Source: an uncultured Verrucomicrobiae bacterium
Lineage (GTDB): Bacteria > Chlamydiota > Chlamydiia > Chlamydiales > Rhabdochlamydiaceae
NCBI GenBank assembly: GCA_963707995.1
Contig: OY970179.1
Span: 1,424,266 to 1,488,265 of the forward strand
Reading direction: 5' to 3'
DNA: 64,000 nt
The notes under the pieces are model-generated. The model was given only the letters and a program-made list of their open reading frames with translations. It ran no database searches and was not told the DNA's origin. Numbering within the stretch: position 1 is the stretch's first letter; each line of letters starts with the position of its first letter. The position numbers and the translations under genes were made by a program. Shown in pieces: positions 51,457 through 51,625 of the stretch.

Positions 51457-51625
51457 CTATACTGCGCCACTTAGGTTGTGTGAATTTTTAAGGCCATTAT
51501 AACGGTCCATCTGCCAGCTGTCGCTCCTCCAAAGGATCATTCAATACATTGTTCGTCGCGACAACTGGCATCTGGGCCGTTCTAAGACCTTCAAAATTCA
51601 CACAACCTAAGTGGGCGCAGTATAG
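51457..51625. mobile_element. MITE family B, copy 1 (169 bp)
   Basis: ~33-bp TIRs 'ctatactgcgccacttaggttgtgtgaattt' / 'aaattcacacaacctaagtgggcgcagtatag'. It ends exactly at the stop codon of ORF 51626-52060. Confidence 0.75.

Follow-up and report, generated by a model that had tools for sequence, protein, structure and literature searches.

The window, that is the whole 64-kb stretch of DNA analysed here, carries two inverted copies of a short repeat that are very probably non-autonomous MITEs derived from an IS630-family insertion sequence (IS), the host being an uncultured member of the Rhabdochlamydiaceae, the first copy being an older insertion and the second a recent one in codon 4 of an ATPase gene. 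In the proposed mechanism, an IS630-type DDE transposase, supplied in trans, would recognise the terminal inverted repeats of about 33 bp, cut the element out and paste it into a TA dinucleotide, which would thereby be duplicated. Copy 1, the older insertion, occupies the 3'-UTR of a 144-aa gene. Copy 2 came in more recently, with an insertion point 6 nt past the stop of a VIT1-family gene, and broke a conserved ATGA stop/start overlap. The native ATPase ATG now leads into a 45-codon dead-end ORF, and an ATG inside the MITE re-opens the ATPase frame. As to the host, the serS product of the window shares 99-100% identity with proteins from MAGs, one of them named Rhabdochlamydiaceae bacterium at its source; proteins at 77-90% come next, with the labels Rhabdochlamydiaceae, Chlamydiota or, evidently used loosely, Verrucomicrobia, so that the window derives from an uncultured environmental chlamydia.

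Anatomy of the two elements

Two inverted copies had been placed by the initial annotation at 51457-51625 and 56593-56761, and both are present there, at a spacing of 4.97 kb. Their reported length of 169 bp includes the flanking TAs and one further base on each side; with the boundaries of the mobile unit refined by comparison with an empty site, the units measure 163 and 164 bp, as follows.

51460-51622, minus strand: MITE copy 1, 163 bp, with terminal inverted repeats at about 51460-51492 and 51590-51622
51458-51459 and 51623-51624: TA to the left of copy 1 and its partner TA to the right
56595-56758, plus strand: MITE copy 2, 164 bp, with terminal inverted repeats at about 56595-56627 and 56726-56758
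56593-56594 and 56759-56760: TA to the left of copy 2 and its partner TA to the right, a target-site duplication

Global alignment of the refined units gives 92.1% identity (151/164) between copy 1 and the reverse complement of copy 2, as against 75% in direct orientation; the inverted orientation of the copies is therefore real, and the interior of copy 1 runs opposite to that of copy 2. Taken as arms, 51467-51624 pairs with 56593-56750 along 158 nt at 93% complementarity, and the longest uninterrupted identity between the copies is 39 bp. The terminal inverted repeats, first estimated at about 33 bp, measure approximately 33-37 nt in each copy, with arms that are 89-96% complementary, and the first base of copy 2 is mutated (GAC in place of TAC). 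Each copy is predicted to fold as a single long, near-perfect hairpin spanning the element, with a dG of -97 kcal/mol for copy 2 and -99 kcal/mol for copy 1 (z about -16; none of 200 shuffled sequences as stable). No ORF lies wholly inside either copy, and only short ORFs overlap them. Rfam returned nothing but a tRNA-His when the whole window was scanned at the gathering threshold and copy 1 at E<=1. The 18-nt core of the terminal repeat has six matches in the 64-kb window where 0.13 would be expected by chance, and an origin of the copies as a chance repeat is rejected.

Parent insertion sequence and related elements in Chlamydiota

Three loci hold parent IS elements, 1171-1175 bp long, that end in the same terminal repeats and are flanked by TA.

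L002, 5195-6369: parent IS, 1175 bp
L063, 1314-2484: parent IS
L064, 115-1289: parent IS

Two ORFs of the L002 element match HTH_23/HTH_33 and DDE_3, and a metagenome search with the repaired L002 protein retrieved five more IS copies at 83-86% identity, namely those of L063 and L064 and three others. The L064 repeats agree with the consensus in 28 of 28 positions; the L063 element holds an intact ORF of 345 aa whose product scores 180.6 bits on the NCBIfam model NF033545 'IS630 family transposase' (cut-off 100) and matches Pfam DDE_3 at 1.5e-25. The L002 transposase, compared with this intact ORF, is split at a run of nine A (5746-5754), which could represent an assembly error, decay or programmed frameshifting. 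The gene beside the IS in L002 shares 79% protein identity with a gene in a Chlamydiae MAG, so that the parent IS there lives in a chlamydia-like genome. Since the window elements have only their ends, of about 28-33 bp, in common with this IS, they are best seen as its non-autonomous derivatives, and they were presumably mobilised in trans.

Searching the 64-kb window by tblastn with the L002 transposase revealed no transposase, and the same search found a distant IS630 in L048 and L052. Among the best 120 matches listed in a transposase protein search, none falls on the 2.09-Mb source contig or on a 521-kb contig of a relative; they comprise relatives about 50% identical from many phyla and a fragment of L002. 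The plasmid collection, with the parent IS as query, gave only weak IS630 matches.

The repeats had been called MITEs from the start, and this assignment is borne out by the TA duplication, the insertion polymorphism described below, the many family members and the IS630-family parent with the same ends. Indeed, the elements are shorter than about 300 bp and non-coding, carry terminal inverted repeats, occur dispersed in multiple copies and share their ends with an autonomous element. Descent from IS630 is indicated in turn by the duplicated TA target of copy 2 and by the IS630-type DDE transposase encoded by the parent.

The extent of the family was assessed by scanning one genome per species with the 19-mer CTTAGGTTGTGTGAATTTT, which returned 53 loci. 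Six Chlamydiota MAGs account for 38 of them (19 in MFD05580.bin.2.22, eight in palsa_1448 Parachlamydiales, six in BWOrgControl, three in C15_metabat.bin.97 and one in each of two others); five loci carry the full terminal repeat and are unlabelled or labelled Verrucomicrobiota, and the remaining ten, mostly Bacteroidota, match over only about 20 nt and are unrelated. The 19-mer is the end of elements of 158-170 bp, of which there are about 35 in the six environmental Chlamydiota MAGs. The consensus ends of the chlamydial elements read TA/TACCGCGCCCGCTTAGGTTGTGTGAATTTT ... AAAATTCAC.CAA...GGGCGCGGTA/TA. A script paired 38 elements of 156-170 bp, at least one of them spurious (L002) and two partial (L027, L029); TA flanks both sides in 33 of these 38, and the next base outward varies. 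The interiors form unrelated subfamilies that share the terminal repeat across several chlamydial species, and full-length resemblance to the window copy, at 68-73%, is confined to the copies of palsa_1448 Parachlamydiales. The terminal repeat is thus the conserved module, as expected if it is what the transposase recognises.

Within the source species, no further copies of this family were seen beyond the two described here. A metagenome scan with the subfamily-specific central 20-mer GTCGCTCCTCCAAAGGATCA gave no matches, probably because short-read assemblies break inside the repeat. Together with these two copies, the window holds three copies or remnants of a sibling family that has the same type of terminal repeat (TACCGCGC..AGGTTTTGTGAATTT) and a different interior; this sibling subfamily also occurs in L011 and L020.

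20418-20586: sibling MITE family, full copy
33184-33277: sibling MITE family, half copy
35578-35620: sibling MITE family, solo terminal repeat

The window is, more generally, unusually dense in MITE-like repeats. At 26144-26193, 30262-30454, 36840-37025 and 48573-48768 lie members of a further MITE family, whose ends read TATACCCAAGTGAATTCAAAAATCGG. Similar ends are found on an intact IS of the IS630 family in a Chlamydiae MAG (L048, 183-1303), which encodes a 347-aa transposase scoring 218 bits on NF033545. Another strain (L076) retains the copies at 26.1 and 30.3 kb, the copy at 48.6 kb has a related counterpart at the matching position in the sister species L074, and in L008 and L041 an element of the TATACCCAAGTGAATTCAAAAATCGG family is inserted inside a member of the group defined by the terminal repeat of copies 1 and 2. 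Short palindromic or inverted-repeat elements of other families lie at 12757-12798 and 14628-14797, at 20678-20825, at 40660-40759 and at 44618-44756. Long tandem repeats within ORFs, their periods being 126 and 120 nt, also occur in the window, as do codon repeats rich in His/Asp (CAT/GAC runs); the positions are 2590-3642 and 34190-35095, and 15880-15939 and 20943-21068.

Insertion history and effects on neighbouring genes

Copy 2 is a clean 166-bp insertion with TA duplication, a hallmark of IS630/Tc1/mariner elements. None of the nine conspecific contigs has it (L054-L062; 96-99% DNA identity to the window), all of which encode a VIT1 protein identical to that of the window. The empty site, AATCAAA-TA-GCACC with a single TA, can be read in six aligned contigs (L054-L057, L059, L061), the filled site in the window being AATCGAA-TA-(164 bp)-TA-GCCCC. 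Two contigs of sister species (L074 and L075, with serS 89-90% identical) also lack copy 2; the order serS-M18-VIT1-ATPase is collinear there, with nothing between VIT1 and the ATPase gene. Since neither the conspecific contigs nor the sister species have the insertion, the empty state is ancestral, and the window strain has evidently gained copy 2 in a recent event seen in this strain alone. The two copies diverge by 8%, and copy 2 was therefore not copied from copy 1.

Copy 1 has a different history. L054 and L055 have it at the corresponding place, in a version of 164 bp that is identical but for an extra C in a short C run, and it is also found at the broken contig ends of L056-L058; on account of this distribution, copy 1 is older and common to all strains in which the site is visible. 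Its neighbour on the right is the following.

51626-51628, minus strand: native TAA stop of a 144-aa ORF (51626-52060) with a signal peptide and an E/K tail

A single G (51625) separates the right TA of copy 1 from this stop, which reads TTA on the plus strand. The initial annotation had described the element as welded to the stop codon, and position 51625 does adjoin it; the relationship is one of adjacency only, as the stop lies outside copy 1 and its TA, with the G between, and is thus native to the gene rather than supplied by the element. Copy 1 accordingly reads as a 3'-UTR insertion one base past the stop, and the TAs that flank it are presumed, by analogy with copy 2, to be a target-site duplication. 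No empty site for copy 1 was found, and the sister species are without the whole island that holds the 144-aa gene. This species-specific island, at about 48.7-53.0 kb between a UPF0158 gene and serS, is a block of four genes (ORFs of 106, 678, 144 and 243/309 aa) with no Pfam match; it is missing in the sister species L074, which has an MFS transporter instead, and copy 1 sits within it.

The consequences of copy 2 can be followed at the junction between VIT1 and the ATPase gene, where these features are found.

55822-56586, plus strand: VIT1-family gene, intact, its stop 6 nt before the insertion point
56583-56585, plus strand: native ATPase ATG, overlapping the VIT1 TGA at 56584-56586 (ATGA)
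56583-56720, plus strand: remnant ORF from the native ATG, 45 codons, ending at a TAA (56718-56720) inside the MITE
56687-56693, plus strand: GGAGGAG, followed after 13 nt by an ATG at 56707-56709, all inside copy 2
56707-58733, plus strand: P1B-type ATPase gene as now read, two ORFs split near 57363

Copy 2 landed in codon 4 of the P1B-type ATPase gene. In strains without the insertion the ATPase begins MNQIAPFVFDEFF, from the ATG that overlaps the VIT1 stop, and in the sister species it begins MNPSTPFIFDEFF and MNLSAPFIFDEFF; the start MN..PF(I/V)FDEFF at the VIT1 stop is thus kept in L074 and L075. In the window, the ATG at 56707 inside the MITE is in frame with the ATPase (MDRYNGLNNSHKLSGHS-IAPFVF..., as against the native MNQ-IAPFVF...), so that at the ORF level the first three residues are swapped for seventeen new ones. 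Copy 2 had been credited with supplying the start of the ATPase ORF, and the longest ORF does start at 56707 within the MITE; what this description missed is that the MITE start replaced a conserved native ATG. Judging from the reading frame, the MITE-borne ATG would serve as the ATPase start. The stop of the remnant ORF follows it at a distance of 9 nt, and its region is buried in the predicted -97 kcal/mol hairpin, a 164-nt structure that may affect the operon transcript.

A bolder reading, of low probability, is that the MITEs defined by this terminal repeat represent the first active MITE system to be documented for the phylum Chlamydiota, and that copy 2 has worked in this strain as a portable gene-start cassette for the metal-transporting ATPase. 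If true, GGAGGAG-13 nt-ATG would drive an ATPase with a MITE-encoded N-terminus after loss of the translationally coupled start.

That the elements have been co-opted as RNA-level regulators in the manner of Correia elements is unlikely. They would then act as a processing site or attenuator, as a promoter, or as donors of a ribosome-binding site and start, with one hairpin between VIT1 and the ATPase gene and the other at the 3' end of the 144-aa gene. Such a role would suit the great stability of the hairpins, the location of both copies in transcribed gene ends and the GGAGGAG-13 nt-ATG that restores the ATPase frame. Promoter-like motifs also occur (GCGACA-17-TATAAT in both copies, and TTCACA-18-TATAGT at the terminus of copy 1), but matches of this kind are no commoner than in shuffled sequence. 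Moreover, the promoter and start-codon functions conflict, the TATAAT being placed downstream of the ATG in the MITE; no T run follows either hairpin, and no Rfam family is matched. Copy 2 is confined to one strain, which speaks against a selected function and for an event that was recent and either neutral or mildly harmful.

As now read, the ATPase gene is split into ORFs at 56707-57417 and 57516-58733, and it is intact, at 661 aa, in the relatives L055-L057. The difference lies in a homopolymer near 57363, which is A8 in the window and in L054 and A9 in L055-L057, the A9 relatives being short-read assemblies. The few other indels that distinguish the window from its relatives include several shortened homopolymers, and the two A8 assemblies are on different SNP backgrounds; for these reasons A8 is probably a long-read base-calling error rather than a real frameshift.

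Further variation surrounds this junction. A 161-bp MITE of another family (55657-55817; TA at 55655-55656 and 55818-55819) lies between the stop of the M18 aminopeptidase gene and the start of VIT1. It has 38-nt terminal repeats beginning AGTAAGTGAGCTGAAATATTTATAATGA and is absent from all nine conspecific contigs, so that two new, unrelated TA-targeting insertions bracket VIT1 in this strain; the strains that are empty at this site carry a 12-nt tandem duplication there (CAAGAAGGTTAA). A 33-nt direct repeat (97% identical; 58702-58734 and 59663-59695) has 961 bp between its copies. The 961-bp segment after 58734 holds a DUF4258 ORF (106 aa) and a 155-aa ORF that together look like a toxin-antitoxin pair, and other strains have at this site a ubiquitin-like gene (132-134 aa) and, in some cases, also a Fic gene. 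This variable cassette site (58702-59695) adjoins a NADAR/tyrosine-phosphatase gene.

With an IS630-derived origin as the preferred explanation, readings that treat the two copies as a functional pair can be weighed against the same comparisons. The initial annotation had pointed out that two inverted copies 5 kb apart would permit inversion by homologous recombination. The copies are 92% identical with 4.97 kb between them, and the segment they enclose carries serS, VIT1, the gene for the M18 aminopeptidase and a hypothetical gene. That they are the arms of an invertible segment is very unlikely, and the geometry makes inversion a formal possibility only: gene order and orientation in the window are those of the nine conspecific contigs and of the two sister species on both flanks, so that one orientation is seen throughout. 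The nine conspecific contigs cannot invert the segment, as they are without copy 2. The longest perfect identity of 39 bp is near the lower limit for RecA-dependent recombination, and upon inversion serS and the other genes would lose their context, with no obvious switchable promoter. The initial annotation had also considered that the elements might be ancient relics, should related genomes show the same fixed arrangement and no other copies; what was found instead is that copy 2 is polymorphic and that the family is multi-copy in relatives.

It is likewise very unlikely that a transposase acting on the outermost repeats moved the whole 5.3-kb block as a composite transposon, even though a pair of MITEs is in principle able to mobilise the intervening DNA and the outer ends here are intact terminal repeats. 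TA stands on both sides of each copy, L054 and L055 have copy 1 without copy 2, and serS-M18-VIT1-ATPase is collinear in sister species with no MITE there, so that the genes predate the arrival of the MITEs. The idea of REP/BIME-like palindromes handled by a RAYT (IS200/IS605-type) enzyme, or of some other structured repeat, agrees with the palindromic, intergenic and multi-copy nature of the elements but can practically be dismissed, given that REPs are 20-40 bp and the window elements far longer, that their long terminal inverted repeats are identical to the ends of an IS630-family IS, and that the empty site demonstrates TA duplication.

Comparison with known systems and significance

In functional terms the window elements are of one kind with Correia elements, RUP and Nezha, all of them short, hairpin-forming, TA-duplicating derivatives of IS630 type at gene boundaries. 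Correia elements (CREE/NEMIS) of Neisseria are about 100-160 bp long, with long terminal inverted repeats that start TATA... and a duplicated TA; they occur in dozens to hundreds of copies near gene ends, fold as whole-element RNA hairpins and can donate promoters or processing sites. The window elements resemble them in size, long terminal repeats, TA duplication, whole-element hairpin and location at gene ends. They differ in having no sequence relationship to them and another host phylum, and in that a parent IS has been identified, whereas to our knowledge no parent IS is known for Correia elements; a Correia terminal repeat, used as a query, gave no matches in the window at up to three mismatches. 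RUP of Streptococcus pneumoniae and Nezha of cyanobacteria are non-autonomous, with IS630-family ends, TA duplication and presence/absence polymorphism among strains. The window elements are likewise IS630-derived MITEs with TA duplication and presence/absence polymorphism, but differ in sequence, in their length of 163-164 bp and in their Rhabdochlamydiaceae host; unlike in RUP and Nezha, their terminal repeat is common to several subfamilies with unrelated interiors across chlamydial species.

Within the IS630 family (IS630/Tc1/mariner superfamily), the parents in L002, L063 and L064 are typical in being flanked by TA and in having one transposase with HTH and DDE_3 domains, while the window elements encode nothing. 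Rickettsia palindromic elements (RPE), of about 100-150 bp and also from an obligately intracellular host, insert in frame and become part of proteins. The window elements are similarly palindromic repeats that can lie inside coding regions; copy 2 differs in being a 166-bp out-of-frame insertion that truncates the native start, so that only an internal ATG re-opens the frame. Among intracellular bacteria, a repeat-rich Cardinium endosymbiont carries MITECca01, a MITE derived from the IS982 family and maintained by its parent IS (PMC9769881); it is thus IS982-derived in Bacteroidota, as opposed to IS630-derived in Chlamydiota. IS expansions have been described for Rhabdochlamydia (PMC9723776). 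In the searchable literature on MITEs and IS630 in Chlamydiae and Rhabdochlamydiaceae, no account of this family or of Chlamydiota MITEs was found. The mechanism, an IS630-derived MITE with TA duplication, is of a textbook kind, and by sequence the element is not a member of Correia, RUP or Nezha.

These elements matter in practice as well, as they break short-read assemblies, several related contigs ending inside them, and can mislead gene callers on start codons, as in the case of the P-type ATPase. With their shared terminal repeat of about 33 bp as a simple probe, the family can be catalogued in MAGs throughout the Chlamydiota. For the biology of the host, the findings show that, beyond full insertion sequences, small non-coding transposons continue to move in a chlamydial lineage that is environmental and obligately intracellular; they land at gene boundaries and generate strain-level differences at operon junctions.
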